Origin: a virus
Taxonomy: Duplodnaviria > Caudoviricetes
Direction: 5' to 3' (one strand)
Virus record (IMG/VR): IMGVR_UViG_3300020471_000006
Coordinates: 32,001-96,000 of that record
DNA: 64,000 nt
Part shown: positions 14,782 through 40,000 of the stretch, piece after piece
How the letters are laid out: each line of letters begins with the position of its first letter
Position numbering within the stretch: the stretch's first letter is position 1
Notes under the pieces: generated by a model
The model's database searches: none
The model's input: the letters and a program-made list of their open reading frames with translations, nothing else
Told to the model about the DNA's origin: nothing
Translations under genes and position numbers: made by a program

Positions 14782-17622
14782 ATGGAAGGACTTAATCAAT
14801 TATATCCAATTCACCAAATTGGATCCGACGGGTTCGCCTGGTGGATCGGACAGGTTGAGTCGCCTATGCATTCTCAGGACGGCGAAGAGAATAAAGATCA
14901 GAAACGTTCTGGAAGATATAAAGTCAGGATTATAGGACATCATCCTAGATCATGTAATGCAGTAAAGAGTTCGGATTTACCATGGGCAATCACTATGATG
15001 CCTGTGACTACTCCGTATTCATCTGGTGCTGTGCGTTCAGCAACGCCACAGTTGGAGCCAGGTGATTGGGTTATAGGGTTCTTTTTAGACAAAGAACAGC
15101 AGCAACCTGTTATCATGGGATCTATTGGACAGGTCGCTAATTCTGGAACACCACCAGGAGAAGATCCTAATCCTGGAGAAGGTTGTAAGAGTCTTACAAC
15201 ATTTGTTGATGAAAATAAGAGACAACTAGATCAAGAAGTAAATGAAGTTGTTGAGTTTAGTGTTACTGATGCAGGTGTACCTTTAGATGGTACTAAATCT
15301 GAGGGAATTACTGATGGTGTTAATAATCTAACCATAGCAAAGTTTGCTGATGCATCGGAATCTAATAGAGCAGGTATCAACTTTACAGTTGAAGTTGCTG
15401 ATAAGTGTCCTGAGTTGCAGGGAAAGTTTAAACGTCTCTTAAGTGAGATGCTTCGTGATACTCAACAGAGTAATGGTCAGTTAGGAACATATGTTGTTAA
15501 CCAGTGGACTGGTCAGATTACTGACTATGTTGATATTGGTAGAAAATATGTAAATAAAGCTGTACTTATTATCAAGAAATTCATTGCTAAAGTTAAGGGA
15601 TTTGTATTAGAGAAGATTAAGAGAGTAGTTGATGATATTGTTAAAGCAATTCTATCACCAAGTGAAACTGGTAATAGATTGACTCCAGTGACAAAGTGGT
15701 TCAATAATATGTTATCAGATCTTGGATGTTCTATGGCAGATCTGGGATTGCGTTTAGAGAAGTTCTTAGAGGATCTTATCTTTGGTTATTTGTTTGATAT
15801 CTACAAAGCTGCTGCATGTCAAGTAGACAAGATGGTTAGTGGTATCCTTAATAAGATTCAGTCTTTGATGGAAGATTTACTATCCAGTATTCTTGGTCCT
15901 CTACAAGCTTTACTTGGTGCTATAGCATCACCACTCAATATGATTGGTGAAGCAATCAATTATGTATTGAATCTACTTGGTATCAAGTGTACTGGACCTG
16001 ACAGCAGATGTAATAAGGTCACTTCTGTAACTACTAAGTGTGAAACAGATAAGCGAGAGAATTTCTTAGACAGATTACTAGAAAGTCTACAAGATCCGTG
16101 GGACGGTGCTGGTGAGGATTGGGCTACCTATACATGTGAAGAAGCATATGAAGGTGTTAAGTTAAAGAACACTGAGGTTACATTTGTTGGTGGTAGACAA
16201 AAGACAGATGGATTGGAAGATAGGATAACATATAATATTAGTGACATACGTGTTAAGGAAGGTGATATAGCAAAGTTTGAAGTTATTAGAACTGGCAAGA
16301 CTGATATTGCTTCTAGTGTTTTCTGGAGAACTATAGAAGGTACGGCAGAGTATGTGACTGATTTTGAAGAAGGAAGTGGGACAGTAGGATTCTCTATAGG
16401 AGAAACGAAAAAGTTTATTGAAGTGAGAACACTTTATTCTGATGAGATAGAAGGTTCGGAAGATTTCTTTGTGTCATTGAGACCAGGAACTCCTGGTGTA
16501 GTCACTAGGTCATTTATCAGTAGTCTTGCTAGATGTGTTATTAACAAATCTAATATAGGATCTAGTTCAGATCCAAATGTAGATCTAGATGACACACCAC
16601 CTACTCCATCAAGGAATGCAAATGATCCTAATAATTTTGAATTTGGAGAAGTATTTGAATCACTAGCGAATGATAATGATAGTGATACTGTAGAGTCAAC
16701 ACCAGATGGACCAACTTATGCAGTGGAACCTAATAAGAGTTCTGTTGAAGAAGGTGAGTTTGTAACATATACTATAAAAACTACCAATGTTGATAGTGGT
16801 ACTGTATTGCAGTATCAATTATTTGGAGAGGGCATCACTAATTCTGATATTGTTGGTGGTCAGTTGAAAGGTCAGTGTGTTATTGAAGATAATAAATCCT
16901 TAGTTGTGGTTGGTATTGAAGATGATGCTACTATAGAAGGTGATGAGAGACTTATATTTGCTATAAATGGTACAGATGCTAGTGCTACTGTTCTTATTCA
17001 ATCTCAGTTAACAGATTTTGGTAGAGAAGATTTATTGAAAGAGTTAGATCAGTCTGAAGATATTGATAAGACCAATGTTTATACAAAAGCTACTAAACCA
17101 ACAGCAGGAGCACCTATAACAGATCCAAGTGGAGGTATCATACAAGTTCCTATAGAGAATCCTGGTACTGCATACACAGAACCACCTGCTGTCCTTATAA
17201 CAGGTCAAGGGTATGGTGCTGTTGGAATTGCTTTACTTGATAAAAATAGTCAGGTTTCAGAGATTAGGGTGACAAATCCTGGATTTGGGTATAAACTTAA
17301 TGCACCACAGACAGAGCAGAAACGTTGTATTATTGATAGTTTTACAATGTTAACACCTGGCACAGGATATACCAGTGCTCCTAGAGTCTATATTGATGGA
17401 GACTCAGATGTAGCAGAAGCTGTAGTTGAGAGGGGTATGGTTGTTAGTGTCAGAATTAAAAATAGAGAGAAGACATTCACTGAATATCCACGAGTCCAGA
17501 TCATTGGTGGTGGTGGGTATGGTGCAAGGTGGTTACCATCATTCAATTGCTTAAGTACCGAAGCACTTGTTAAAGTTGGATCTGCTAAGATTGGTACTGG
17601 TTCCTATATTGATTGTCCGTAA
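14782..17622 (+). CDS. gp5: gp5-like baseplate hub/spike, N-terminal part (OB fold, helical region, Calx-beta-like domain); no lysozyme motif seen
   Basis: FAWWIGQVE, GRYKVRIIGHH, LPWA, WVIGFFLD..QQPVIMGSIG; YNISDIRVKEGDIAKFEV..TG..ASSV.WRT.EGTA...DF. Confidence 0.8.
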   Translation: MEGLNQLYPIHQIGSDGFAWWIGQVESPMHSQDGEENKDQKRSGRYKVRIIGHHPRSCNAVKSSDLPWAITMMPVTTPYSSGAVRSATPQLEPGDWVIGFFLDKEQQQPVIMGSIGQVANSGTPPGEDPNPGEGCKSLTTFVDENKRQLDQEVNEVVEFSVTDAGVPLDGTKSEGITDGVNNLTIAKFADASESNRAGINFTVEVADKCPELQGKFKRLLSEMLRDTQQSNGQLGTYVVNQWTGQITDYVDIGRKYVNKAVLIIKKFIAKVKGFVLEKIKRVVDDIVKAILSPSETGNRLTPVTKWFNNMLSDLGCSMADLGLRLEKFLEDLIFGYLFDIYKAAACQVDKMVSGILNKIQSLMEDLLSSILGPLQALLGAIASPLNMIGEAINYVLNLLGIKCTGPDSRCNKVTSVTTKCETDKRENFLDRLLESLQDPWDGAGEDWATYTCEEAYEGVKLKNTEVTFVGGRQKTDGLEDRITYNISDIRVKEGDIAKFEVIRTGKTDIASSVFWRTIEGTAEYVTDFEEGSGTVGFSIGETKKFIEVRTLYSDEIEGSEDFFVSLRPGTPGVVTRSFISSLARCVINKSNIGSSSDPNVDLDDTPPTPSRNANDPNNFEFGEVFESLANDNDSDTVESTPDGPTYAVEPNKSSVEEGEFVTYTIKTTNVDSGTVLQYQLFGEGITNSDIVGGQLKGQCVIEDNKSLVVVGIEDDATIEGDERLIFAINGTDASATVLIQSQLTDFGREDLLKELDQSEDIDKTNVYTKATKPTAGAPITDPSGGIIQVPIENPGTAYTEPPAVLITGQGYGAVGIALLDKNSQVSEIRVTNPGFGYKLNAPQTEQKRCIIDSFTMLTPGTGYTSAPRVYIDGDSDVAEAVVERGMVVSVRIKNREKTFTEYPRVQIIGGGGYGARWLPSFNCLSTEALVKVGSAKIGTGSYIDCP

Positions 17623-19339: not shown

Positions 19340-19392
19340 TTGACTAATCAATTAAATGTGGTATAATGGAGGGGGAAACCCCTCCTTTTTTT
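19340..19392 (+). terminator. Terminator overlapped by a sigma70 promoter
   Basis: TTGACT (19340-45), 16 nt, TATAAT (19362-67), then GGAGGGG-gaaa-CCCCTCC-T7. Confidence 0.75.
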
Positions 19393-19845
19393 ATGTTAGA
19401 AGATTTTTGCGATAAACTAGAAGGATTCTATGATAATTGGAATCAAGCATGTAGAAACCCTGCTGTGTGGTCTCATGTTAAATTGCGGTGGAAACGTATA
19501 GGTGATCATGAGTTTGAATCAAAACAATGGTATGAATATCTTGGTGAGGAGAAAGCATACAGACATAAGTGGCATAAGGTATCTGAACAACAAGGTACGA
19601 TCATAGTACAGAATTGGACAGTTGATTGGAAAGATCATAATCATTGTTGTGATATGTTATTCTTTGAAGTTGGTGACTACTATGCTGGCAAGGTTAAGAC
19701 AGATGCTTGTATTGTTAATGGTGGTAGAGTAGTATCATTAGTTAAATTTGATGGTTCATACTATAAGAGTAGAGATCAAGGATGGAAAGATGATAAAGTA
19801 GTTTGGGGTAGTGACGTGATCTATAGATTTGATAAAATCGAATAA
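19393..19845 (+). CDS. cpeT: CpeT/CpcT-type phycobiliprotein lyase
   Basis: FCDKLEGFYDNWNQACRNPAVWSHV, CDMLF and SRDQGW; phage CpeT-like. Confidence 0.82.
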   Translation: MLEDFCDKLEGFYDNWNQACRNPAVWSHVKLRWKRIGDHEFESKQWYEYLGEEKAYRHKWHKVSEQQGTIIVQNWTVDWKDHNHCCDMLFFEVGDYYAGKVKTDACIVNGGRVVSLVKFDGSYYKSRDQGWKDDKVVWGSDVIYRFDKIE

Positions 19846-19869: not shown

Positions 19870-20160
19870 ATGGCATTTAAGGGATATGATTTAGCATCAA
19901 AATATGTTTATTTGTATTTTGATGAGGCTAGATCTTCGGTTGTTAGAATGTGGTTTATAAATGGAATGCCATTTACATTCGATTCTTTGGAGAAAGAAGA
20001 CTTAGAGAATCCATGGAATCAGGGTGAAGCAGCACTTAACCCAGAATTTACACTAGAACAAGTTGAAAAGGTCTCTAGTTATTTGATGGAAGAGGAACTA
20101 CATCCTCTTTTGTTTGAAGTACCTTTAGTTGGAAAATTACCAGATGATACCCTTTCGTGA
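19870..20160 (+). CDS. Hypothetical protein
   Basis: 96-aa ORF after ATAAATA late motif (19842-48). Confidence 0.65.
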   Translation: MAFKGYDLASKYVYLYFDEARSSVVRMWFINGMPFTFDSLEKEDLENPWNQGEAALNPEFTLEQVEKVSSYLMEEELHPLLFEVPLVGKLPDDTLS

Positions 20161-20560
20161 ATGCCTTATAGGTAAATTTGATAATCATAAACAAGCATTA
20201 CAATACCCTAGTAGATTTGCTAGAATACTAATTCATCACGAGGATATGGGTGATGGATGGATCTCTGGGTTCCAAGCATATTTCCATAACCCTAAACCCT
20301 ACAGGAAATATCGAATGTGGGTTACACCAATTGGGGAAAAATTTCTCGTACAAAATTTTGACTCAGAAGGTTTGACATACAAGGAAGGGTATGATACAAT
20401 ATTTGAGTGGAAGAATGACCATTGGCATGGTAAATCCCACGATAATGCACAATATACAGTTGATGCTATACTTGACAAAGACAGGTATTATGTGCTAGAT
20501 AAAGGTGACACTTGGGGTTCTCAATGGGGTCACTTTAAATTTGATAGATCGCCATCATAG
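20144..20560 (+). CDS. cpeT: Second CpeT/CpcT-like lyase
   Basis: FRECLIGKFDNHKQALQYPSRFARILIHH, PYR, WGS.WGHFKF. Confidence 0.72.
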   Translation: MIPFRECLIGKFDNHKQALQYPSRFARILIHHEDMGDGWISGFQAYFHNPKPYRKYRMWVTPIGEKFLVQNFDSEGLTYKEGYDTIFEWKNDHWHGKSHDNAQYTVDAILDKDRYYVLDKGDTWGSQWGHFKFDRSPS

Positions 20561-20622
20561 CACAGTGGTAGTGCAGGGCTTTTGTAAAGCCAAGGTCGGG
20601 GGTTCAAATCCCTCTGATGGCA
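20551..20622 (+). tRNA. tRNA-Thr (anticodon TGT), CCA not encoded
   Basis: GCCATCA/TGATGGC acceptor stem, AGTGGTA D loop, TT-TGT-AA anticodon loop, GGTTCAAATCC T arm. Confidence 0.92.
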
Positions 20623-20904
20623 TCCTCTTCTGAGGATAGGTGACGACACCTACATTCTGGACAGGGGTTCGATTCCCCTCATCTCCATTCAGGGGGATGC
20701 CACGGCTTCGACAGGGTATAAGGATCGGGACTGAAACCTGCTTGGATAAGCAAACCATATCTGCAAAAACAGATACACCTGCTGCGAATAACATCGTAGC
20801 ATTCTCACGTCCATTCAGCAAGGTTGCCAAGCGTGACCTCGTGGCTGTTTAGACCATAAGGTGAGATGGGGGTGAGGTTAGCCTTCTAACCCAAATAACC
20901 TACT
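20623..20904 (+). ncRNA. ssrA: Circularly permuted two-piece tmRNA
   Basis: T arm GGGGTTCGATTCCCC and acceptor 3' strand CATCTCC-A (20680-87) precede the 5' strand GGGGATG (20693-99) with G3.U70 pair and TTCGAC; tag frame ANNIVAFSRPFSKVAKRDLVAV* (20784-20852). Outer ends approximate. Confidence 0.88.
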
Positions 20905-20924
20905 GGGGGTGAGATACCCCCTTT
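20905..20924 (+). terminator. Intrinsic terminator after tmRNA
   Basis: GGGGGT-gagat-ACCCCC-TTT. Confidence 0.65.
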
Positions 20925-20929
20925 ATATT

Positions 20930-21475
20930 ATGCAAATATTAGATAATCTATTACCTAAAGAAGAATTTAAGAAAATTGAACATTTTCTAGTAGGTGGAGG
21001 TGGTCTTCCTTGGACTTACTTAAACTATAAAGTTTATGGACCAAATGAAGAGGATCTCGACAACTATCAGTTTGTTCATCCATTTTATTTTCAAGAATCT
21101 TGTAATGGACAATTTCAAACTGAAATATCTCCATATTTTGATTATGTCATACCTATTTTGAATAAACTTGAGTTTATTGCATTACATAGGGTGAAAGGAA
21201 ATCTAGAACCTTTAAAATCTAAAAGGTTTTATAGTGATTTTCATACTGATTGGGGTTATATGGAAGATGGCAAAAAACATGTATCTAATAATATGACAAC
21301 TGCTATCTACTATGTTAACACATGTGATGGTTATACTGAATTTGAAGACGGCACAAAAGTAAAGTGTAAGGCTAATAGGTTAGTAAAATTTCCATCTTCT
21401 ACTGAACATAGAGGTGTTAGTCAAACTAATAAACGTGTTAAATCTGTTATAAATTTAAACTTTTTTGAATTATGA
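20930..21475 (+). CDS. 2OG-Fe(II) oxygenase superfamily protein
   Basis: FHTD (HxD), TAIYYVNTCDGYTEF, EHRG, VINLNF. Confidence 0.82.
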   Translation: MQILDNLLPKEEFKKIEHFLVGGGGLPWTYLNYKVYGPNEEDLDNYQFVHPFYFQESCNGQFQTEISPYFDYVIPILNKLEFIALHRVKGNLEPLKSKRFYSDFHTDWGYMEDGKKHVSNNMTTAIYYVNTCDGYTEFEDGTKVKCKANRLVKFPSSTEHRGVSQTNKRVKSVINLNFFEL

Positions 21476-22070: not shown

Positions 22071-25000
22071 ATGGCATTGACAAGACTTGACAATCTTATT
22101 AGTTCTAAAACTGGTAAGTATTTGTACGTCTCACCTGACGATTTTAACGCAACGGATGAGATTAATAATAGAGGTAACTCCCCTATTAGACCGTTTAAAT
22201 CGATTCAGAGGGCATTTTTAGAGATTTCACGATTCTCTTATCAACCTGGTCCTGATAACGACAGGTTTGATCAATTCACCGTCATGGTGATGCCTGGTAA
22301 ACATTATGTTGATAATAGACCTGGTCTTGCTACTACTGACGGAATTGATGCTTTTGCGTTTGATCAAGCACTTAATCAATGGATTGATAATTCCAATTTA
22401 GACATTGGAGATCCTAATAACTGTCTGTACAAGTTTAATAACACTGAGGGTGGAGCCATAATCCCTCGTGGTTCATCTATTATTGGTTATGATTTACGTA
22501 GAACATCAGTTCATCCACTGTTTGTTCCCGATCCTGCTGACAGGTTAGAAGCTCGCTCTGCTATATTCAATGTTACTGGTGGTTGTTATTTCTGGCAGTT
22601 CACTATTAGAGATGGTGACCTAGAGCCTGCGTCACCATTATATGACAATTCAGAAGGAATTGGTAAAGTTTATTATCAAAATGGTGATTGGACTGCAAAA
22701 GCTGTACCAAACTTCTCTCACCACAAACTGACTGTTTTTGAGTATGCAGACAAAGAAGAATTAGGTCTGTACTACCAGAAAGTTGCTAAAGCATTTTCAC
22801 AATATCAACCAACAATTGATGATCCTCGTGAATTCGGTGATAGAATCGAAGAGACTAGAATTGTTGGTCCTCTATCAGACATTCGTTCTGTTGAGAGTAT
22901 TAAACTTACAGATTCAGCACCTGCTGGAACAATAACAGTTGAAGTAACATCCAAAGTTAATCATGGATACTTCAGGAACCAATTTGTTGCTATTGAGAAC
23001 AATGGTCTAGATGATCAGCTCAATGGTGTGTTCTCTATTTCTGAGATTGATTTAGTTGATCAACGTAAGTTCTCATATAATATACCAGGAACTGTTGGTG
23101 CTCTTGGAACTAGTGCATCTTTGATAAGTGGCACAACTTATACTGCATCAAATGGTTTAGATTCTAATGCTGTAGTTAAGGCAGAGGTTGACTCTGTTGA
23201 ATCTGCATCTCCATACGTCTTTAACTGCTCCATCCGTTCAACATGGGGTATTTGTGGTATCTGGGCAAATGGTTTGAAAACCACTGGTTTCAAATCAATG
23301 GTTATCGCTCAGTATACTGGTGTATCTCTACAGAAAGACGATAGAGCATTCATCAGATATGATGAGTACAGTAACACATTTAATCAAGCATCACTATCAG
23401 ATGCATTTGCTACTGTTCCATATCATACTAAAGGTGATGCATACTGGAAGGATGACTGGAGAAACTTCCACGTTCGTGCATCAGAAGACGCATTCATTCA
23501 GTGTGTTAGTATCTTCGCTGTTGGTTTCGCTGATCACTTCCTAATGGAAAGTGGTGGTGATATGAGTATCACCAACTCTAACAGTAACTTTGGTAATACA
23601 TCACTACATGCTATTGGTCATAAAGGATTTGCCTTTACACAGGATAAAGGTGGATATATTACAGATATTGTTCCTCCACAGGTTGTAGATACAACTACTG
23701 GAAATATCAAGAAGAATGCTTACTATACTATTGATATTCCAGCTACCAAAAATCTTAACAGTGCATCAGACCAGACTAAGATCTATCTTGGAGACGATGA
23801 AGCATTTAATCCAGAGACACGTGTTGCTGCATCTATTGATGGATTCCGTATAGGTGCTAGGTCAGATGAAAAGTTATATGTAAAATTAATTCCTAGATCT
23901 GCTGGAAGTAGTAATATTTTCGAGGCAACATTATCTCCTAATGGATTTAAGAAGTTTAATGCTACTGCAACTATTCTTAATCCTACTGGTATTACAATTA
24001 ACAATAAGGATCTAGATGCTGCTGACCTTATTGAAGCAAACAAAGAGTTTATTGCTTACGAGGCATACGGATATATTACTAATAAGTATCCATACCTCTT
24101 AGATAGAGAAGGTATTGATATTGTCAAGTGTCGTCGTGACATTGGATATTTGCTTGATGCTACTATTCAGGATTTAAGACTTGGTGGTAACATTAATACT
24201 ATTCAAGCTGGTGAATCATACTATGTTGGTAATAACTTATCATACATTACATCAGAACTTACTGAAACTCTAGAAGGTTACGACTACGCTAGAGATCTTG
24301 CTATTGCATCTATACGTAATTTCACATATCTACGTACTGGATCAGAGACAACTGCTGGATCTGCTATTGTTGATGTCGGTGACACAAGTGGTATCGTTCA
24401 AGGTATGACTGTTGCTGACTATGATCCTACTCAGTTTACAGACAACAAACTTAATTCTGGTGCTTCACGTCCTGCATCTCCAGTTATTCCTGATAACACA
24501 TATGTTAAGAGTGTTATCTCATCAACAGAGATTGAACTTGGACAGAAAGCAACATTCTCTAGTAAGAAGGTAATCTCTGATCGTAATGGTGACGCTAGAA
24601 ACCTATTACTTTCAAACAAACTATTCATTGCTGCTGAAGCATTTGATAGGATGGTATTGGATTTCCCATCTTATACTTCACCAACAGGATACGGTCCACA
24701 GGATTGTAGGGATGACTTAGTTGACATCGTTGAAGCAATTGCTGAGAATACTGCTTATGGTGGTAACGATGAAGTATGGGATGCTGCATATCATTATGAT
24801 AGTGGTGCAGTTCAGTATATTTCACAGAAGAAAGAAGAGACCATTCGTGCGATTGAATATGCCAGAGATATGTCTGTGCAGATCATGCGTAATGAGAAGT
24901 CATTCATCTTTGGTAGTCATGGTCTAACTCAAACATATGATAATACTGTCACTTATGAACCACCTGAAGTGGTTAATGACAGAAATGGTGACGCACGTAA

Positions 25001-28000
25001 TCTAATACTTGCTAACAAGCATTTGATTGCTGCTGAATCTGTAGAGAGAATGTTGGTTCGTTCTTCTACTGCTGAGTATACACCAACTGATGCTGAGTAT
25101 GATCCAGCAACAGGTGATTTGACTCTTGATGTTCAGAGTCATGGATTAACTGCTGCTAGTGCTATTACAGCTTCAGATGCAAATTATAATCCTGAAACTG
25201 GTTGGTTGACTATTACATCTAATGGTCATGGTTTAGCTGCTGGTAGTAAGGTTAAGATTGAAGATGAATCATTGACATTGACATGTTCAATGGATGGTGA
25301 TGCTTCTACTCATGTATATCCTAGACCATCTGATCCTATTAGTAATAAGTGGGTTGAAGTTGCTGAGGCAGACACAAATACATTCAGTATTGATGTAGGT
25401 AAGTCTCTATTAATTGGACATAATGTAACTGCTGCTGAATATGTTCCTGCTACTGGATTGTTAACTGCAACTATTCCAGGTCACCAGTTAAGTGAAGGGC
25501 AGAATGTAAGAGTTGAAGACGGAGCATTTACATTTACATGTGCTCAAGATAACTATGGCACACAACATGTTTATCCACGTTCAACTGATCCAGCATATCA
25601 AAGTTCTGTTAAGATTGTAGCAGATGGTTCCAAGCACACAGTTACTGGTGCTGGATACAACCCTGATAAGGGTACTATGGAATTCACCCTTACAAATCAT
25701 GGATTTAGTAATGGTGATAAGATAAGAATTGATGATAATGCATTAGTCTTTACTTGTGCAATGGATGCTAATGCTACTGAGCATTCATATCCACGTAAGT
25801 CTGACCCTATTAGTGGTAAGTGGGTTACTATTACAAACAAAACTAACAATACTTTTGAAGCACATGTTGGAACTACTGGTGCGGTAACATATGATCTTAC
25901 TAACGCACTTTATGATCCTGCAAGTGGTGAGTTAACAGTTAGTGTTGATGGAAACCATGACATTGATGTTGGTGAGAATATTAGATTTGCTGATAATGCA
26001 TTAACATTTACATGTGGTATGGATGGAAATAGTTCTAACCACACATATCCTCGTACAACTGACCCTGCGTATAATACTGGGTTAGAAGTTATAGGTGTTG
26101 GTGGTAACTATGATATTTCTAATGCTAACTACAACCCATCTACAGGTGTACTTGAGTTCACTGTTGCTAATCATGGATTGACAAATGGAGAACTCATTAA
26201 GATTGCCAACAACTCTCTAACATTCACATGTGGCATGGATAATAATGCTTCCGAGCATAAGTATCCACGTGCAACTGATCCTTATTCTGGTGATTGGTTA
26301 TCTGTCTATGATGTAGCACAGAATTCATTTAAAGTTCAGATTGCAGATGCTGGATCTAACGTAGAGTTTACACCAACTGATGCTTCTTATGACCCTGCAA
26401 CTGGTGACTTAGAACTTACTGTTGGTGCTCATAATCTATCTGTTGGTGATGGAATCGTCATGGATGACGGTGCTGTATCCTTCACTTGCACAATGGACAA
26501 CAACCAAGTTGCTCAGTCATATCCACGTGCAAACTTAGATAAAGCTTCTGGAAGATCTCTTCCAATTACCTCAGTTGATACAGGTAAGTTTACAATTAAT
26601 GTAGGTGCTGCTGGTTCTAATAAGAACTTAACTCCTACTGGTGCAACATACAATCAGAACAATGGTGAGATGGTTCTTACTGTTGGTCAGCATGGATTGC
26701 GTGTTGGTACTGATATTACATTAAAAGATAACTCATTAACATTCACTTGTGATAAAGATGGTGGTGCTACTCAGCATTCATATCCTAGACCTGGTACTGA
26801 CCCTTATGCTGGTAAGTCAATTGCTATTACAGCAGTTGGTTCTTCACAACATACAGCAACTAATGTTGCATACACACCTTCTAGTGGTGTTATGGTTGTT
26901 ACTGTTCCTAGTCATGGATTCTCACCAGGAGATTACATTCAGGTAGCAGATAATTCTATTACATTAACATGTGATTTAGATGGTAACGTAAGTCAGAAGA
27001 CATATCCACGTACTAACTTTGATTCACTAAGCAACAGGTGGGTTCCTATCCTATCAGCAAGCACTGATACCTTTACTATTAATGTTGGTTCTTCTACTGA
27101 TAATTCAGTACACACATTTGTATCTGCTTCTGCTAATGGTATCTTAAAGCAAGACGGAACACTAACAATTAATGTTGGTTTCGATGCTGATCCTGCTAAC
27201 AGATATGCTCACACATTTGTATCTGCTCTTACCGATGCTGTAGAATATAAGCCTCAGTCAGCACATACATTCGTATCTGCATTAACAAATTCAGTTAAGC
27301 ATCTACCACAGTCTGCTCATACATTTAAGAGAGCAGCTAACTATGCTATCTCCAAGAGAGGTGGTGACATCACAGTTAATGTTGGTAAGTCTCCTATTGT
27401 AGAGTTCACACCAACTAATGCTACCTATGATCCTAACACAGGATTGATGGAATTAACTATAGGTAGTCACAGTTTAACTGCTGGCACAAGTGTTAAGGTT
27501 GATCCTAATTCTCTCAAGTTTACTTGTGAGATGGATGGAAACTATAGTGTCAAGTCTTATCCTCGTGCTACTGACCCTGTAAATGATACTTCTATTGAAA
27601 TTACAGCAGCGTCAGCTACAACTATTACTATTAATGTTGGTCAATCTCCAATAGTAAGTCACAATGTTGATGATGGTTCATACAACCCTGCAACAGGTGA
27701 GATGACCTTGAAGATTGGAAACCATAGTCTAACTGTTGGTGAGTCAATCAAGATTGCTGATGGTGGTGTAACATTCAGTTGTACTTATGGTAATGTTCCA
27801 CATACCTTTATAACTGGTGCTGCTGGTGGTATTACTGCTGATGGTAGCACAGCATTGACAGCAGCTTCTGGAACAACATACGATCCTATCACAGGTGAAT
27901 TGGTTCTTGAAGTTGGAGCACATGCTTTGAATGCTGCTTCTACACATACAGTAACAGACGCAACATATAATGCTGCAACTGGTGCTATGGTTGTTACCAT

Positions 28001-31000
28001 TGCTAATCATGGATTTAGTAATGGTGATAGAGTTAAATTTGCTGAGGGTTCCATATCACTTAACTGTGCTATGGATGGTAATGTTTCTACTAAGACATAC
28101 CCACGCAGATCTGATCCTACATTCGGTAAGTGGTTACAAATCTCTAATGTAACTCAAGATTCATTCTCAGTTGATGTTGGTTCATCTCCATTAATACAGC
28201 ATACACCTACAGGTGCAAATTATAATCCTACCACTGGTATAATGGAACTTACCATTGGTGCTCATAGTTTGACTGTTGGTACTGCTGTTAAGATTGCAGA
28301 TAACTCTCTAACATTCACTTGTGCTGAAGATAATCATCAAACAACACACACTTATCCTCGTGCAACTGATCCATTCTCTGATAAATCATTTGCTATTACT
28401 GATGTAACTGCTACAACAATTAGTGTTCAGGTATTAAGTACAATCCCATCTACTAATGTTACAGCACACTTATTTGTTTCTGCAACTGCTGACTGTGTTA
28501 CATCTGGTGGAAACTATGCACATACATTTGTTTCTGCAACTGCTAGTGGTCTTAAGAAAGCAAATAGTACAATCACATTTGATCAGGATGCATTAACATT
28601 CACTTGTAATGCTGATAACAACGCTACACAACACACATATCCTCGTGCTGGTGATCCATTCCGTAATGAAACACTAGGTTTAGATTCTGTCACTGGTACA
28701 ACAATGACAGTATTCGTTGGATTCTCTACTGGTAGTCAGAGTGCTAAATCTTATCCTAGATCTGCTACTGAAACACATACAGCTACTGCTGGTACAACAT
28801 ATGATCCAACTACAGGTATATTGAGTGTAACAACTGCTGCTCATAATATCAAGAATGGTGATTATGTTCAGTTTGCTACTGGTGCATTTACCTTCACATG
28901 TATGGAGGATAATAACAGCACCAACCACACATATCCTCGTGTAACTGATCCAGTAAGTAGTAAGTGGTTGAAGGTTTCTAATGTAACTTCAACTACATTT
29001 GAAGTACAAGTATTGGATGTTATTCCTTCTACTAACGTTACTGCTCATACATTCATAACTGGAAGCAACAACGGTATTACTTCTAAGGTTGACAGATCAT
29101 ATGATCAGGCAATAGAAATCACTGGTGTTACTGCTGATACTATTACAGTTAATGTTGGACCTTCAAGCAAGACTACAGACGTACATACTTTCGTATCTGC
29201 ACTAGCAGGTGCTGTTAAGTCTGGTGGTGGATATGTTCATACATTTAAGTCTGCTGATGCAGGTGCTCTTAAGACAGGTGGTAACTATCTACATCAATTT
29301 GTATCTGCTACTAGCGGTGCTTTAATTTCTGGTGGTAACTACGCACATACATTTGTAAGTGCTGTTGCTAATGGATTAACAAGATACGATGGAACAGTAA
29401 CTTTGGATGTTGGTACATCTTCTAACACTACTGCACATCAATTTGTATCTGCTATACCTAATGCAATTACTACTGGTGGAAACTATGCACATACATTCAT
29501 ATCTTCTAATCCAAATGGTATTAAGAAGGCTAATGATCGTATAAGAATTGATTATGGTGCATTGAACTTTACTTGTGACATGGATGGTCACAACAGTCAA
29601 CATGCATATCCACGTATTAGTGACCCTGCATATCAGGAAGATCTACCAGTTCTAGCAGCATCTACTAATCAGTTTACTGTTAATATTGGTACTACAGGTC
29701 AAGGTAATCTTGATGTAAGTGATGCAACTTACAATCCTTCTACTGGTGACATGACAGTCACAGTTGGATCACATGATTTGGAACCAGGTCAAGACGTTAA
29801 GATCATTGGTAACTCTATCAAGTTCTCATGTAATGCAGATAACAATGCTACAGACCATGCTTATCCTAGACCTACTGATCCTGCTGGAACATCATCTCTA
29901 CCTGTTAAGTCAGTTGGTTCTTCTTATCATAGTTCAACAGATGCTTCATACAATCCTTCCACTGGTGATCTAGTTCTTACTGTTGCTAATCATGGATTCA
30001 CTAATGGTGATAGAATTAAAATTGCTGATGGATCACTCACATTTACATGTGATATGGATAACCATGCAACTGAGCATGCATATCCAAGACTTAAGGATCC
30101 TAGCAATGGTAAGTGGTTAGTAATTTCTGATGCAACAACAAATACTTTCAAAGTTAATGTTGGTCAGGCTGGTGCTTCTCAAACATACACACCTACTGCT
30201 GCCACATACACAGCTGCAACTGGTCAGTTAGTATTAACTATTCCTAATCATAACATTCCTGTTGGTAAGAATATTACTATAGCACAGGATTCATTGAAGT
30301 TCCGTTGTGCAATGGGTGGTACTTCTGACATTAAGACTTACCCTCGTTCTAGTGATCCTATCTACTCAACAGGTACAGTAGTTACTGCTGCTGATGCTAC
30401 AACAGTTACAGTTAATGTTGGTGCTTCACCTTTAGTCAGTCACACTCCAACGGATGCATCTTTTGATCCTGCAAATGGTTTGATGACATTGACCATTGGT
30501 TCTCATAACCTAACTGTTGGTGAGTCTGTTAAGATTGCTGATGCTGGAGTTACATTCACATGTGGTCAGGATAATAATGCCACAAACCATGCATATCCTA
30601 GAACAACAATTGAAAGTCATACAGCAACCATGGCTGCCTATGATCCTGATACTGGTATCATTACAGTTACTGTTGCTGGTCACGGAATGCGTGATGGTGA
30701 TTGGGTTAAGTTAGCAGATGATTCTCTAACATTTACATGTGCTCAAGATGCTCATGCTACTAACCACACATACCCAAGAGCATCTGATCCTATCAGTAAC
30801 AAGTGGGTTAAGATTTCTAATACACAGACAAATACATTTGATATTCAAGTATTAGATTCTGCACCTTCAACCAACACTACAGATCATACATTTGTATCTG
30901 CTGTCGCTGGTGGTATTACTCAGAAGAAAGATAAGTCTTATGATTCACCTGTAGATATTACAGCTGTAACAGCAACAACAATTACTCTTGATGTTGGTAA

Positions 31001-34000
31001 GTCTTCTAACACTACTGTTCATGCATTTGTCTCTGCAACTGCTGACGCTATAACCAGTGGTGGTAACTATGGTCATACATTTGTTTCTGCTAATTATGGT
31101 GCTGTAACTGCTGACATAACTGAGAATCTATTTACACCAACAGGAGCAAATTATGATCCTGCAACTGGAGATCTTACTCTAACAATTGGTAGTCATTCTC
31201 TTGCAGTTGGTGATGGTATTACTATTGATGATAACTCACTGACATTCAAGTGTCAGATGGATGAAGAGCAGTCCAATAAACTTTATCCACGTCCAGCATC
31301 TAAAGGTCTTACTGCAACTACTGGTACAACATATAATCCTACAACAGGTATTGTTTCTATTACAACAACTGCTAATCATGGATTAAAAACTGGTGACTTT
31401 GTTAAGATCGCTGATGGTGCTCTAACATTCAGTTGTGGATTTAATGGAGCAACAGGTACTGCTGCTGAGAAATCATATCCACGTCCTAGTGATCCTGTAA
31501 GTGGTACATGGATTAAGGTAACAGAGACAGGTGTTGATTCATTTGAGTTCCAATGTCTTGAAGCTCTACCTTCTACTAACACAGACACACATGCATTTGT
31601 AAGTGGTGTTGCTGATGGAATCACACGTCAGACTGCTACTGATAGAGTATCTGGAAGATCTGTAGATATTATCGCTAGAACTGCAAATACAATTACAGTT
31701 AATGTTGGTGGAGCTGGAGATAACCAGACATGGACACCTTCTGCTGCTGATTATAACTCAACTACTGGTGATCTTATTCTTACAATTGGTCAGCATGGTC
31801 TTCGTGAAGGTGCAGGTATTGTTCTTAAGGATAATTCACTAACCTTTACATGTTCTAAGGATAATCATACTTCTAACCATAGTTACCCACGTCCTGGAAT
31901 AGATCCATATGCAGGTGATAAATCAATCACTGTTAATAGTGTTGGTGCATCTATGCATAGTGTTAGTGGTGCAGAATATACTCCTGAGACAGGTGTTCTT
32001 AAACTAACAGTTAACAATCATGGATTCTCTAATGGTGATTACATCAAGTTAGATGATGAATCTCTAACTCTGACATGTGACCTTGATGGAAACGTAAGTC
32101 AGAAAAAATATCCACGGGCAGGATTTGACCCTGTAAGTTCAAGGTGGTTGAAGATTGCTGATAAGACTACCAATACATTTGAAGTCAATGTAGGAATCTC
32201 TTCTGATAAGTCAGTACATTCATTTGTATCTGCTGTTGCCAATGGATTACACAGACAGAATGGAACCATCACAGTTAACATTGGTGCTTCACCATTAAGT
32301 AACTACACACCTACTGCTGCATCTTATAATGCAGTCACTGGTGATATGGTTCTTACTATTGGAGTACATGATCTACAAAATGGTGAGAAGATTAAGATAG
32401 CACCTGATTCATTAACATTCCAGTGTGCTAAAGATGCTAATGCAACTAACCACACATATCCTAGAGTTACTGATCCAGCATACAATAGTGATCTAGAAAT
32501 TAAGGATGCTACAACTACAACAATCACAGTTAATGTTGGTGCAGCTGCTGCTAATGATCAGTATGATCATACCTTTGTTAATGCAACTGCTAATGCTATC
32601 ATCTACAACCAGAGATATACACATACATTTGTAAATTCTGTTGCTAATGCTGTTCATTTCGAACCAGCATCACCACATACATTTGTAAGTGCTATTGCTA
32701 ATTCAATCAAACATTATCCTACTGCTAATCATACATTTGTAAGATCAGTTGCTGGTAATATTCAGAAAGAAACTGGAACATTTACAGTTAATGTAGGTGT
32801 TGCTACTCTATCTAATCAGTATCCACACCAATTTAAGAGTGCGTCTGCTGGTGCTATTCAAACTGGTGGTGCATACTTCCATAAGTTTGTTAGTGCAGTA
32901 AACAATTCCATACACAAAGTATTTACAGTTGCTGGTAATCAACAGTATCATAATCAAGATTGTATTGATGATGTTGTTGATCTACTTGAAGCAGTTGCTG
33001 ATAACATTGCTTATGGTGGTAATGATAAGACATGGGATGCAGCATACTCATACAAGACTGGTGCTCATGTAGCTGGTGAAGAAGATGAAACCAATTATGT
33101 ATTTGAGCAAGCACGTGAAATGGCTGCTCAAGCACTTAGAAACCAGAAGATTCTTGTTACTGGACATCATGGTCTTCCACAGGTATTTGATAAGAGTATT
33201 ACATTCAATGAGGCTGATCCTCCAACAGATAGATTTGGTGATGCTCGTAACTTAGTTGTTGCTAACAAACTACTCATTGCTGATGAAGCATACGAGAGAA
33301 TGTTGGTACAACATCCTGGATTTGTTCCTCCAACAGGTAACCAACAGGATTGTAAGGATGACATCGTAGACTTCGTTGAAGAAGTTTCATATAACCTAGC
33401 ATATGGTGGTAACGATAGAGTTTGGGAGATGACCGATCTCTATGTACAGGGTATGGTTCAAGAGGTTGCTGGAGAAGAAACACAAACTATCCAAGCACTT
33501 AATCATGCACGTGATTTGATGATTCAAATCGCTAGGAATGAGAACATTGTAACACTTGGTTCTCATGGACGTACACAGGTTAGGGACACTACTATTACTG
33601 GTAGCGTTGCTCCTCATGTAAGTAACAGACATGCTGATGCTAAGAATCTAATCTTGGCTAACGTTGAGTTTGCAGCAGAGGTAGCATTGGGTAGAATGAT
33701 TGCTCAGTTCCCTTCATATTCATGGCAAGCTGGTTACAGTTCTGCTGATTGTTTAGATGATCTTAAAGATGTAGTTAAAGTTGTTGCACATAACACAGGT
33801 TATGGTGGTAACCATAGAGTATGGGATGCTGCTAACCTTTATGTTGCAGGTGCTCATGCTGCTGGATCTGAGAGTGAAACTATCTTTGCATTCAATGCAG
33901 TACGTGACATCATCAAAGAGATTGCTACTAACGTAGAAGTTACTGTTGGTGGTCACACATCATTAACTCAGACAAGAGATCTTACCATTACTAATGGTGT

Positions 34001-37000
34001 TACTAATGGAGATTGTAATGTTGTATTGAGTGCTATTGATACTTTAGTTGCTATCTTAACTGGCACAATATCTGATCCAACATCACTACAAGGTATAACA
34101 CGTACAGATTCTGTTGGTCCTTGTGAGGACATGAGATCTGCTGTTGGTGTTCTTACTAAGATTGTAACTGATGCTATTTCAGATCCTAGTACACTATCTG
34201 GTAAGAAGCATACAGTAACTACATCAACTTATGATCCTGCAACTGGTTGGTTAACACTTGATATTGGTAATCATAGTTATACAAATGGAACCAGTGTACA
34301 CATCGTTGATAACTCACTAACATTTACATGTGAGAGAGATAACAACGCAACAAATCATACTTATCCACGTTCAACCGACCCAGCTTCAAACAATGATCCT
34401 ACCATTACTGGCACTACTGCTACCACAATCACGGTTAATGTTGGTGTATCATCTGATACGTCAGTTCATACCTTCGTCAGTGCATCAGAGAAAATCGTAG
34501 TTGGTGGAGTTACAAGAACTCCTTCAGTTGGATCATGTGAAGATGTAAGATCAACACTTAATTCACTATTCAAGATTGTTATTGATACAGTTGAAACACC
34601 AACATCTCTTGATGGTGTAACAAGAACCATTTCTAATGGTGCTTGTCAACAGGTTGCATCTACAATCACAACTCTCTACCAGATAATCACTGGAACTATC
34701 AACTCTGCTTCTTATCTTGACAGTGTTGAAAGGAACCCTGTTCCTCTTGGTCTAGAGTTTGGTCCTTCTATTAATGCTAACGCAACTAGCACTAACTCTT
34801 ACTTACACTTTGAGTTTGCTGATGCAGTATACACAGCTCTTACTAGAACAGTTGACAATACTATCACACAGAATACAACGTATCCTCAGTGTGTTGATCA
34901 AGCAAATGCTATTCGTCAATACTTCGCTAATATTAGCACAATTATCCAAACTGGATTGGGTAGTGTGCCACGTCAACAACCATCACAGTTAACTACATCA
35001 TTATCATCTAGAGCAACAGTCTTTACATTGACACAAGGAGCTGGTGCTAACCCACATGATCTTGAGACAGGTACACCAATTAGATTGGTTCCACGTCCAC
35101 GTTATGATACACAAACCAATTCTTATGTTGATGTTGATAAGCGTTTCGTTAGACTTCCTAATGGATTTGCTACGAACGAAACATATTATGTAATTGCTCC
35201 TGCAAGGAATACACAACCAGAAAATTATTCTGCTAATGCTGTATTCAATGGAAGTGATCAAACTAAATTAATGCTTGCAAGCAGCAAAGAGAATGCTGCT
35301 GCTGGTATCTACCTACACTCTGCTGAAGTAGAAGATATACATCCAGACATAGAGATTGATCTATATCAATTTGTTCTTGATGATAACTATGATCTACATC
35401 AATATGGTTGTGTACTTGATGGTGTAAGTAATACAAACATCCGTACAGATGTTCCACACATCTTTGATGTTCCATTCTCTAACATTACTGGACATACAGT
35501 ATTCTTTAGAGAAAGAGAAGGTGGTGCTTTACCTCTAGTTGGTGCAGCATATGCTAGTGATACTACTGTTGCAGATAGTCAAGGTAGACTACTAGGTAAC
35601 AGGTACTTCTTTGCTAGGTATCAAACAGAGAAAGTCTTTACTATCCATAAGACTAAGAGTGATGCAGAGCAAGGTGTTAACCCAATAACATATCAACCAG
35701 GTACTTACGACTTTAACGTATTTGCTAACAAGCGTCAGTCTCCAATGAGATTTGATCCAGCGTTTGTTAATCCTAATACTAACCCAGTAATATATGGTAA
35801 GTGGTACTTACAGGTTGAGAATAGCAACAATACAGATCAAATCATCAAGAGACTTAGAGAGTATGCTGATGGTATTGATAAGACAAATGATTCTTGGTTC
35901 GAGAGAATTAAGGATGAGAGACCTGCTAACGATAGACTATATCGTTTACGTTATGTTATACCTCAGTACTTACAATCTGTTCGTGATCCACTTAACGGAT
36001 TTACTATTAAGACAAGGACTGATGAAACTAGAAGAATAGTACCTCAGAAGATAAGTCTTAAGCCTGTCTCTGGTGGTACAACTAAGGCACGTTTCTCTAA
36101 CCCAGTACAATCTAATGAGTACATTGGATATACTAAGCAAGAGTTCATTTCTAATAGTCTTAATGAAGAGATTGCATACGATCCATACAAGAAGGATGTC
36201 GTAGGTAATACACAGTTTAAGAAAGTTATTACAACACAGAACTATATCTCTATGACTATTCAGTCTGGTAGATATGTTCAGACTGGTGGATTAACTGACT
36301 ACTTAGAACTAACTGTGTTTGAACATGGTGTTACTAATCCTGCATTACTTAACACTAAGTTTAATACTATTAAGATTACTGCACCTCAAGGTGGATCATT
36401 CACTGCTAACAAGACACAATCTGTAGAAGGTAACAAGGTCGAGTGGGCTGGTAATTCTAGTGGTTATGGTTATCTACATGCCATCATGAATGTACCTGGT
36501 ACTACTACATGGCACATGATCCTTAAGGATGTTGTTGGTAAGATTGACTATGATGCTATTGACAACACAAGGTTCAGTCAGGGTACAGCATTCGCTGATC
36601 TACTTGCTGATGCTGACATGGGTAAGTCATTGGTACTTAAGGATCTTATTAAGAAAGAATATCCTGAATTCTATTACAGACAGAATGGTGCTGGTGTTTA
36701 TACTATCACACCAGGTGATATTATTGAAGACGACGCAAGTATCCAATACTATGTTGAGTCAGTAGAAGATGTTGGTCAGATTGATGACACATTCTATGTC
36801 TTCAATACACAAGAGATTCAGAAACGTATCTATGGTCAGCAAGATGGTATCTATTATCTAACTGCTGTTCGTGGTAACATTTCACCACTACCTCAAGGTG
36901 CTGGTAACTTAGGTAACTTCAGGAACTTTAAGTTCTCCCAGCCTATCTCCTCACTATATCCATTAAACTATAAGAACGATCCTCTCTGGTATCAGCAGTT

Positions 37001-40000
37001 GGATGCAACATTAGTTGATCCACCTCAGACATACTCTGCTGCTGATAACTATGTTCATGGTCTTGTAAGAGTTAATGACTTCAAGGGTTCACTAACTCAA
37101 GAGAGTGTCATTGATCTAATTAAGAACAATGCATTCGGAGACAATACTTATACACAAGTATCTTCTGTAGTTGATAATAGAATCAGAGCACAGAAGGGTA
37201 ACGCTGCTTCTGGATCTGAAGATAGATTAATTCCTATCGCTGGTGATAGTACAGTCGTAGCAGATCAACGATACTATGTTGAACTTCGAAGACCATCTAT
37301 CGCAAGAGCTGGTAACCACACGTTTGAATATCTTGGTTTTGGTCCAGGTAACTACTCAACTGGTCTACCTCAACGTCAAGAGGTTGTACTCACAGAGATA
37401 CAAGACTTCTATGCTCAGTCTAAGAAGCAAGATGGTGGTTTAGTATTCTACACTGGTCTTAACTCAAATGGTGACCTATACATTGGTAACCGTAAGATTG
37501 ATGCTATTACTGGTGAGGAAGTATTCCTTGAGTCTGCAACATTACAAGATTCTGGTGATGATGACGAGACACTAGGTAATCTAGTTACAACGTTTGATAC
37601 TCCTGTTACATTTAATGAGTACATCACTGTTAATGGTGGTGAGGCTCAGGATAAGAGAAGTACATTTAACTCACCAGTTCTAATTAATGTTCTTGGAACT
37701 GTTAGAAACAATCCTGCGTTGGTAATTTCTTCCTTCGTTGATCCTGCTATTGATGATGGTTCTCTTGATAGATCAGCATTCGTCAGAAATGTCGAAACTG
37801 GTGGTGATGTTGTCATTGCTAGGAATAAAATTTCCGCAGCAATTTTCCAGTTCAATAGTCGCAGAGATGGTCAGGGATACAAGATTCTGACACATATTAC
37901 AGGTGCTACACCTTCTAACATTACTCCTGATCAAACTGGTGCATTTAATGCAAGTCAGATTGTTTCTTATGGTAATGCAGGTGCTCCTGATTCTGGTGAC
38001 ATGCTCCTTAAGGGTGGAAGTATTGGTAAGTCTGGATCACTTGGTTGGATCTATTCAAACTACTACACTACAATTGGTAATGCTGTTCCTGAATCCCTTG
38101 CATTTAATAACACTAACGTTATTACACTTACATGGGCTACATTAACAAACCAGCAACTTGGTATTACATCAGCTTCTGAACTTAGATTCAGTGGATTCTC
38201 CGATCCTGACTTTAATGGTACATGGCAAGTTATATCCAATGGATTTAATCCTGCTGCTAATACATTACAGTTTGCTATCGGTGCAACTAAAAACACTGTT
38301 AATAATCAGAACCCAAGAATGTGGTCTGATGAAGTTGCAGCTAATGCTAATATCACAATTGAATACTCCAATTCCAACTGGAAAGAGTGGGGTGTTATTG
38401 GTGCTGAAGCAATTAGAACAGAGACTGATGCTATTGGTGATTACAAACTTGGTATTAACACAGTTGGTAGATCAGATAAAGCATCTTACAGTGAAAACTT
38501 TGTTGATGCTAAGACAAACCCACGTGCAAACCTTGATGTTGTTGGTACTGCATTCATTAGTGGTAAGAAAATCACTGACTATGCATCACATGCAACTGAT
38601 GCTACTAGAACATATCAAGATCGTACTGATGCATTCATGGTTGGTGGAGATTCTTCCTCACCAACAGATGAGTCAACCTTCAGAGTTTCTACCGCTAACG
38701 GTGGACGTGTTGGTGTTAATGTAACTGATGCTGAATTAGATAGATCATTAGTTGTTGATGGTGAGTCTAGGTTCACTGGTGATGCTAGGTTCGAAGAAGA
38801 TATTGAAATCAATGGTGGTGGTGGAGCTAATACTGCACAGATTAGAACATCTATTACTACAGGTAAGGTACAATTCTTCCCTAATGCTGGTGGAACTCCG
38901 TTCACTGGTGAAGTAGAGATTGCACCACTTGGTACTAGTATTAAGATTGCAGATGCAACTCCATCTGATCAGTTTATCAAGATAGGTAACTTCTCATTCC
39001 ATAGTAATATTGACATTGGTTTCACACCTACAATGTCTACCAATATCTCTAAGGTGCAGATAGGTGGTGCTTATGAGAATAACGAATCATTATCATATAC
39101 ACTTATAGGTACTAAGTCATTCAAGACTAAGGGAGACTTCCAGTTAGGTACAGTTAGAGGACTACTTGACACTGTTAAGTTGACATCTACTGCTGGAACT
39201 GTTGAGTTCTTTGCTGGTAACTCTGCTACATCTAAACTTGACTTTGCTACCAATGCTTCTGAGATCACAATCGCTGGTAAAGGTGGTAAGACTACAGTTA
39301 GAAACAACCTAGTAGTTGATTCTACTGCTAGATTTAACTCTGACATCACACTTTGTGGTGGATTTGCATCTTACTCATTCACAGCATACAGAGCACAGCA
39401 AGGATCTACTGCATTCGCTCATGCTAGTGGAGATCTAGGTAACAATATCTTCAACAGTAATGTTGATTTGATTGAAGTTAAGAGACTCGTTAATACTGAT
39501 GAGAACTACAACGCAATTGATACAGCTGGTACTGGTGATTGGGGTGGATCTGTATTCCAGAATCCAATTACACAGATTGCTGGAACTGTTGAACCTCTAA
39601 CTCTAACAGGTTTGAGTGGTGATCAATATTACTTACCACTTAAGAATCGTCCATACGATTCTAATGGTACTCAGTATATTAATGAGCAAGATATATTACT
39701 CATTGATACTGATGATTCAGGTGGTACTAAGCATCCAGAATTTGTTAAAGTTATTTCTCTTCCAAGAATTAACGTTGCACCTTACTGGATCGTAGTTGAA
39801 AGACTACCATTTGGTACATTCACTGCTACTAGATCTGATCATCCAGATACTACTGCTATCTACAAGTGTACAGTACAGTATAATGCTACTTGGACTACTA
39901 CAACTATAGATGATGCAGGTACTGAGGACAATGTATACCTAGCACAGTTCGGTGGTAATATTGAACTTGGTGATTATATAATCATTGATCGTAAAGATAC

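Follow-up and report, generated by a model that had tools for sequence, protein, structure and literature searches.

Synechococcus, Prochlorococcus, and Cyanobium encode a two-piece tmRNA (Rfam family RF01851) whose acceptor piece precedes the coding piece in the gene (Gaudin et al., 2002, to the extent recounted in PMC1242208), and the two-piece form of this host RNA has been confirmed by Northern blot (PMC1242208). Hudson et al. (2014) reported phage-encoded tmRNAs only from mycobacteriophages and Bacillus phage G (PMC4131195). In a survey of 18,146 phage genomes, Buchholz et al. (2022) recorded 53 two-piece forms, mostly marine, and permuted tmRNAs of S-SSM7, S-CAM1, S-CAM3, and S-CRM01 are included in their Table S1 (PMC9004378). 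The 2025 update of the tmRNA database took in RefSeq viruses (PMC11915505).

The tmRNA gene described here lies in a stretch of 64,000 nucleotides (the window) corresponding to bases 32001-96000 of a complete virus record of 202,519 bases, and is a further example of the phage gene type already catalogued in the 2022 survey. It shares with the host two-piece tmRNA the order of the pieces, the T arm, the G3.U70 pair, the long helix P2, the hairpin in place of pseudoknot 1, the single 3' pseudoknot followed by a terminal hairpin, the lack of an encoded CCA, and a tag core of the form ANNIV-FSR. It differs from the host gene by an in-frame insertion of 21 nt after the resume codon, which forms an extra hairpin, by a longer and different middle part of the tag, by a tag that ends in VAV rather than Ala-Ala, by the absence of an accompanying smpB, and by its position on the phage side of the phylogenetic tree.

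Other phage systems resemble it in part. In the cultured cyanomyoviruses S-SSM7, S-CAM1, S-CAM3, and Sf-FS3, which were compared directly (S-CRM01 was taken from the survey table only), the tmRNA belongs to the same lineage, has the same architecture, carries a seven-codon extension (AKSSDTA, ANTSDSA, AKTSDVA), and lies beside tRNA genes and upstream of fibre genes. However, the middle and end of the tag differ from those in the window (VTA in S-SSM7, ATA in Sf-FS3, VAA in S-CAM1), and in the S-CAM1 type a different element is found instead of the GCUUGGAUAAGC hairpin. Melnitz and pelagimyophages, which are myophages of heterotrophs, likewise combine a permuted tmRNA with absence of smpB in a marine T4-like phage, and the same roles have been proposed for it, namely to sustain the hijacked translation machinery or to tag proteins (PMC9004378). 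Their tmRNA genes derive from the alphaproteobacterial permutation, in some cases with a glutamine riboswitch, whereas no riboswitch was found in the window. The tmRNAs of the Bxz1 group of mycobacteriophages and of Bacillus phage G also occur without smpB, but are one-piece and unpermuted, and these phages infect unrelated host groups (PMC4131195).

Genomic context and anatomy of the tmRNA gene

The source genome has a G+C content of approximately 38% and the gene content of a T4-like cyanomyovirus. Its baseplate hub gene is approximately 70% identical to those of S-CAM4 and ACG-2014j, the closest isolates, and this low identity indicated an uncultured lineage. A search for a near-identical isolate yielded no close cultured relative, the fibre region giving a match of 5% only. 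According to ARAGORN, a tRNA-Thr and the tmRNA are the only two RNA genes in the whole 202.5-kb genome. The main features around them are as follows.

14782-17622: gp5-type baseplate hub, the first of the listed genes
19366-19845 and 20129-20560, plus strand: tandem CpeT-like genes (phycobiliprotein lyase family), directly upstream of tRNA-Thr and tmRNA
19368-19385, plus strand: strong hairpin GGAGGGG-GAAA-CCCCTCC with a T run after it, resembling a terminator
20372-20400, plus strand: promoter-like site, TTGACA, 17 nt, TACAAT, TG-extended, 11 of 12 consensus matches
20551-20622, plus strand: tRNA-Thr, anticodon UGU (ARAGORN), abutting the tmRNA
22071-41927, plus strand: single open reading frame of 6618 codons, just downstream of the tmRNA region

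From the hub onward, the order is hub/lysozyme, cyanophage OMP, the two CpeT-like genes, tRNA-Thr, and tmRNA; 3' of the tmRNA follow a 2OG-Fe(II)-oxygenase-like gene (20930-21475), an HNH endonuclease, and the 6618-codon reading frame. The strong sigma-70-like site at 20372-20400 lies inside a CpeT-like reading frame, approximately 150 nt 5' of the tRNA-Thr; as a consensus match only, it is a candidate promoter of the tRNA-Thr/tmRNA unit. The stop codon of the second CpeT-like gene overlaps the start of tRNA-Thr by approximately 10 nt. Further upstream, the hairpin at 19368-19385 overlaps the start of the first CpeT-like reading frame and is directly preceded by a near-consensus promoter-like site (19340-19367). 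The 6618-codon reading frame, which occupies the place of fibre or peptidase-S74 genes in S-SSM7 and Sf-FS3, presumably encodes a giant fibre or virion protein.

A circularly permuted tmRNA was called at 20623-20921 by ARAGORN and by two Rfam models. The cyano_tmRNA model (RF01851) scored 128.1 bits (E 2e-34) over 20606-20921 and was matched from position 1 to 288 of its 288 positions, while the tmRNA_permuted model scored 76.1 bits; the curated Rfam gathering thresholds are 70 and 47 bits, respectively, and both matches are far beyond chance. The order is permuted: a removable segment is preceded by the T arm and the 3' acceptor strand and followed by the 5' acceptor strand and the coding part. 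All parts of the gene are on the plus strand.

20623-20636, plus strand: hairpin UCCUC-UUCU-GAGGA at the 5' end of the acceptor piece, equivalent to the first hairpin in the host model
20639-20659, plus strand: 5' strands of helix P2 in the acceptor piece, pairing with 20712-20732 of the coding piece
20663-20679, plus strand: T arm, 5-bp stem and loop UUCGAUU, 100% of cells paired
20680-20687, plus strand: 3' strand of the acceptor stem, CAUCUCC (20680-20686), and discriminator A (20687)
20688-20692, plus strand: intervening segment (linker) UUCAG, read from the sequence
20693-20699, plus strand: 5' strand of the acceptor stem and start of the coding piece, GGGGAUG
20700-20732, plus strand: D-loop-like segment (GGCUUCGAC) and 3' strands of P2, from Rfam and pair counts
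20739-20752, plus strand: hairpin UGCUU-GGAU-AAGCA (the GCUUGGAUAAGC hairpin), replacing pseudoknot 1 as in host two-piece tmRNAs
20758-20775, plus strand: hairpin a, UAUCUG-CAAAAA-CAGAUA, with the probable resume codon GCA (20763-20765) at the boundary of stem and loop
20763-20852, plus strand: tag reading frame, 29 codons (AKTDTPAANNIVAFSRPFSKVAKRDLVAV) and TAG at 20850-20852 (ARAGORN)
20781-20800, plus strand: hairpin b, GCUGCGA-AUAACA-UCGUAGC, covering the second Ala-Ala-Asn...Val stretch
20868-20900, plus strand: pseudoknot region, in which a G-rich stem closes the loop and GGUUA (20876-20880) pairs with UAACC (20896-20900)
20905-20921, plus strand: terminal hairpin and T-rich run, corresponding to the final helix in the Rfam model and also picked up by a terminator scan

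A first-pass annotation of this sequence had already proposed a permuted tmRNA, and the acceptor stem, T arm, G3.U70 pair, discriminator A, and 5-nt linker that it had described were all found at the letters given; the proposal was borne out by ARAGORN and both Rfam models. The gene end at 20904 had been set too short, as the gene extends through the terminal hairpin to 20921, a site that resembles an intrinsic terminator. The linker had further been described as standing in place of CCA. The UUCAG segment is indeed present, but this wording is misleading, as host genes and the tRNA-Thr also lack an encoded CCA. Since CCA is encoded by neither the tmRNA nor the tRNA-Thr, it must be added after trimming. 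The length of the linker varies among relatives.

The 7-bp acceptor stem contains the alanine identity pair G3.U70 (G20695.U20684). Helix P2 comprises 15 pairs, with 100% of cells paired and compensatory changes at 5 pairs, and in the structural model it holds the acceptor and coding pieces together. The register of the lower stem of the pseudoknot is uncertain. A glutamine riboswitch inside the tmRNA has been reported for Melnitz and for the single-cell virus AG-345-P14 (PMC9004378). Rfam searches detected none in the window, even at E values up to 1, nor did seven relatives, AG-345-P14 among them, yield one at the gathering threshold.

Structural conservation and phage relatives

Relatives of the gene were collected by two pattern scans of IMG/VR and one scan of species genomes. 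The initial pattern for the tRNA-like domain was broad and also matched many unrelated bacterial one-piece tmRNAs and prophage ends, which were filtered out by the tag and form assigned by ARAGORN. This yielded 96 unique phage sequences of the tmRNA family and 30 host sequences from Synechococcus, Prochlorococcus, Cyanobium, and Vulcanococcus. Partial DNA matches were found in Sf-FS3, S-SSM7, S-SSM6a, S-CAM1, S-CAM3, and AG-345-P14, the best of those to the tmRNA region being only 73-86% identical. In the deposited records of these phages, the tmRNA gene is unannotated or named as a small hypothetical protein.

RNAalifold, applied unaided to 20 phage sequences, arrived at P2, the T arm, and the acceptor stem, at the hairpin in place of pseudoknot 1, and at two more hairpins in the tag region. 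Pairs were counted across 20 relatives in a curated set of 59 pairs, one pseudoknot helix among them; the Rfam register of helix 5, around the tag stop, and of the lower pseudoknot stem fitted the window poorly, with several non-canonical pairs, and these helices were left out of the counts except for a 3-bp core. In the curated structure, 96.1% of cells were paired, as compared to 44-50% when the 3' partners were slid by 1-3 columns, and 18 pairs had changed on both sides (compensatory), as compared to 2-4 in the slid controls. The observed covariation score was reached by none of 500 shuffles. G3.U70 was invariant in all 20 relatives, whereas the neighbouring pair occurred as four pair types, and the pseudoknot helix GGUUA/UAACC showed compensatory changes at five of its five pairs. 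In hairpin a (20758-20763 with 20770-20775), two pairs showed compensatory changes (U-A to G-C and C-G to A-U), the stem reading UAUCUG/CAGAUA in the window and AGAUG/CAUCU or GACG/CGUC elsewhere. In hairpin b (20781-20787 with 20794-20800), GCU or GCA at codon 7 (67 and 25 sequences, respectively) tracked GUA or GUU at codon 12 (66 and 25), and the covarying changes were synonymous at both codons. This covariation indicated a selected, structured RNA and not a relic; the phage tmRNA is almost certainly functional.

In a maximum-likelihood tree, hosts and phages were separated by a split with 91% SH-aLRT support, with all 30 host sequences on one side; three sequences from phage contigs, which have host-like tags, adjoined the hosts. 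The window fell in a clade of five phage sequences (99%) within a clade of 15 (97%), a position that places its tmRNA in an old, phage-only lineage and not among recent copies of a host gene. As the tree is unrooted, we infer a host-to-phage direction from the universal, vertically inherited nature of the host gene. The earlier description of the gene as a host-derived ssrA is thus upheld as to ultimate origin, in a gene of the marine Synechococcus/Prochlorococcus type, but its position on the phage side of the tree speaks against a recent host copy.

The relatives are frequently associated with tRNA genes. A tRNA-Thr abuts the tmRNA in 46 of the 96 unique relatives, and 18 of the 96 have a whole tRNA gene, for Asn-GUU or Tyr-GUA, within the permuted tmRNA gene. 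One of these is L070 (2147-2577, minus strand), in which a tRNA-Asn at 2411-2483 aligns to the linker between acceptor and coding pieces; the other relatives with an internal tRNA are L063, L071, L247, L248, L264, L268, L274, L275, L279, L290, L302, L304, L324, L326, L327, L332, and L336. From such genes one precursor would give three RNAs, whereas in the window the linker consists of 5 nt only.

In the type represented by S-CAM1, S-CAM3, and AG-345-P14, the P2-proximal part and the GCUUGGAUAAGC hairpin are absent, and another conserved element (...GGUUGUAAUUGUUGACGGAAC...) stands in their place (L242:2944-3258, L243, L241, L071, L082, and others). No riboswitch was detected in this element at the Rfam gathering threshold; for AG-345-P14, a glutamine riboswitch has been reported (PMC9004378). 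Rfam also identified a wcaG RNA motif in S-CAM1 (L242:5566-5662) and, in a cyanophage contig of IMG/VR (L082:11738-11823), a PhotoRC-II motif, in both cases near the tmRNA gene.

Metagenome runs with DNA near-identical to the locus numbered 14 and came from 11 studies. In two studies, contigs from metatranscriptome libraries covered the gene at 95-99% identity (e.g., 20612-20854 and 20600-20808) and included a compensatory variant of the acceptor stem (20682 T>G with 20697 A>C). These contigs hint at expression of the phage tmRNA; they derive from four RNA runs in the form of assembled Logan contigs, which carry no transcript starts, ends, strand, or level and may include DNA carry-over, and parts of the gene that they leave uncovered carry no meaning.

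Start and end of the encoded tag

The tag predicted by ARAGORN, AKTDTPAANNIVAFSRPFSKVAKRDLVAV, starts from GCA 20763 and consists of AKTDTPA followed by ANNIV...VAV, 29 codons in all, while host tags read ANNIVRFSRQAAPVAA in Synechococcus and ANKIVSFSRQTAPVAA in Prochlorococcus. The in-frame ANNIV...VAV sequence ending at TAG 20850-20852 had been recognized in the first-pass annotation, which placed its start at GCG 20784. This start probably lies seven residues too late: with fairly good confidence, we place the beginning of the tag at GCA 20763, 7 codons or 21 nt further 5'. In E. coli, an A at position -4 relative to the resume codon (A86) is important for resumption. Such an A precedes GCA in 92 of 92 extended phage relatives and in the hosts, but precedes GCG in only 1 of the 92. 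GCA 20763 lies 11 nt past the GCUUGGAUAAGC hairpin, close to the 12 nt that separate the host resume codon from the host hairpin, and the tmRNA_permuted model aligns the resume codon to the same GCA. L089, a phage relative without the insertion, resumes in the same upstream context with ANNIV directly after it. The seven-residue front insertion is common to 92 of the 96 phage relatives; in all 92 it measures exactly 21 nt and is free of in-frame stops, and the tag reading frame stays open. Across codons 7-13, variation in these 92 is almost solely at third positions. The sequence ANNIDTA-ANNIV found in some copies resembles an in-frame duplication of the start of the tag.

The other possible arrangement, in which translation resumes at GCG 20784 to give the tag ANNIVAFSRPFSKVAKRDLVAV and the upstream 21 nt are an inserted structural hairpin only, draws on the Rfam cyano_tmRNA alignment, which puts the host resume codon on this GCG, and on hairpin b, which surrounds it and corresponds to the hairpin that in hosts starts with the resume codon. 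A position at the edge of a covarying hairpin is, moreover, unusual for a resume codon, and conservation around GCA could reflect the hairpin instead of decoding; as the 21 nt also form a covarying hairpin, their conservation is partly structural and could be explained without decoding. However, GCG 20784 lacks the A at -4 in all but one of the 92 relatives and lies 32 nt past the hairpin, as compared to 12 nt in the hosts. In addition, the insertion keeps its exact length and open frame, the ANNIDTA-ANNIV copies point to an in-frame duplication, and the upstream GCA was chosen by both ARAGORN and the tmRNA_permuted model. Resumption at GCG 20784 is therefore considered unlikely, and GCA 20763 is retained as the probable resume codon, a choice that depends on rules learned from E. 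coli (A at -4) and on position. The two starts predict different junctions in tagged proteins: resumption at GCA would give ...A-AKTDTPAANNIV (in Sf-FS3, ...A-AKTSDVAANNIV), and resumption at GCG would give ...A-ANNIV.

Host genes have a single hairpin at the tag start (GCGAAC/GUUCGU or GCUAAC/GUUAGU), in contrast to the two adjacent covarying hairpins in the window. Within the host hairpin, position 3 of the resume codon and position 1 of codon 6 (Arg CGU or Ser AGU) covary, a possible reason why the tags of Synechococcus and Prochlorococcus differ by Arg versus Ser.

Comparison with host tags confirmed that the Val end is distinct: all 30 host tags end in Ala-Ala, an end that is typical of the RF01851 family without defining it, while only 29 of the 96 phage tags do so, the remainder ending in TA (44), TV (11), AV (6), LA (3), VA (2), or PA (1). 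The window's exact tag, ending in VAV, recurred in three other contigs with genes that are otherwise different. Of the 15 tags in its clade, 14 end in Val, encoded by GTT, GTC, or GTA, and Leu at -3 is likewise encoded by synonymous codons. This synonymous codon use within the clade indicated that the Val end is kept by selection on the peptide and is no stray mutation.

In Synechocystis and E. coli, versions of the E. coli ssrA tag with a Val end (AAV, ASV) reduce reporter levels to a smaller extent than LVA (PMC2860132). By analogy, the phage tag would probably be a weaker or differently routed degron, and the earlier suggestion that its Val end might alter recognition by ClpXP is a reasonable one. 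A more far-reaching reading is that this lineage has remodelled the tag on purpose, with a seven-residue extension on a covarying hairpin and ends other than Ala-Ala (ATV, VAV, ATA, VTA), such that rescued polypeptides are not fed to ClpXP as usual. We regard this reading as possible but doubtful. If it were true, rescued polypeptides would be spared, degraded more slowly, or sent to another protease or adaptor, and the phage would keep ribosome recycling while changing its proteolytic cost or the recycling of amino acids. A literature search, with subscription journals mostly outside its coverage, found nothing on the tag extension or tag ends of cyanophage tmRNAs.

Proposed function and significance

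Taken together, the locus is best read as a working permuted ssrA gene of a T4-like cyanomyovirus, of the marine picocyanobacterial type, whose RNA is processed by the host and rescues ribosomes; we hold this overall account with considerable confidence. The tmRNA would be cotranscribed with the upstream tRNA-Thr, and host tRNA-processing enzymes would release the pieces: 3' processing of the tRNA after A20622 would free the acceptor piece at its 5' end, the cut before G20693 would fall to RNase P, and UUCAG would be trimmed before addition of CCA. The expected products are an acceptor piece of approximately 65 nt and a coding piece of approximately 230 nt, joined by the acceptor stem and P2. 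The tRNA genes that abut the tmRNA gene or lie inside it in so many relatives fit release by tRNA-processing enzymes. Host AlaRS would charge the tmRNA via G3.U70. The absence of smpB, which the first-pass annotation had remarked on for the window, holds for the entire genome of 202,519 bases, in which no SmpB, ClpP, or RF-1/ArfB-type domain was found. As the phage has no smpB of its own, it presumably uses that of its host, and host SmpB and EF-Tu would deliver the phage tmRNA to stalled ribosomes. Translation would most likely resume at GCA 20763, adding Ala and then AKTDTPAANNIVAFSRPFSKVAKRDLVAV. A likely benefit, which we put forward as conjecture, is that ribosome rescue continues in infection as host RNA synthesis falls and broken mRNAs accumulate.

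Two other explanations for the presence of the gene were weighed. The RNA might act as a decoy, occupying host SmpB or ribosomes and blocking trans-translation in the host instead of performing it, as proposed for the molecule of mycobacteriophage DS6A. Such a role would suit a phage genome without smpB, and a phage molecule that consists of a tRNA-like domain only and inhibits tmRNA has been described (PMC4131195, PMC11915505). However, the full coding piece, open tag frame, resume context, stop codon, and pseudoknot are all conserved, and the third-position variation in the tag across at least 92 relatives would be needless for a decoy, which makes this role very improbable. Even less credence is given to a decaying relic, either a captured host gene or the remnant of an integration site, with no present function: tmRNA genes often serve as integration sites, and prophages can contain pieces of them (PMC9004378), but the present gene is complete, well above the Rfam cut-offs, and covarying, forms a lineage apart from host sequences on the tree, and is kept in a lytic-type T4-like genome, syntenic beside tRNA-Thr, and in many divergent phages. 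A functional tmRNA engaged in ribosome rescue thus remains the preferred reading.

In deposited genomes, tmRNA genes of cyanophages are missing or misannotated as small hypothetical proteins. Phage tmRNAs of this kind mean that some large marine phages bring part of the ribosome rescue system with them and rely on the SmpB of their hosts. They also present a natural experiment, in which the hosts have an invariant Ala-Ala end while the phages keep the parts needed for rescue, vary the degron end, and add an extension at the front of the tag. If the tag end does alter the fate of rescued proteins, ribosome release and proteolysis would be separated in a natural system for which cultured relatives exist.
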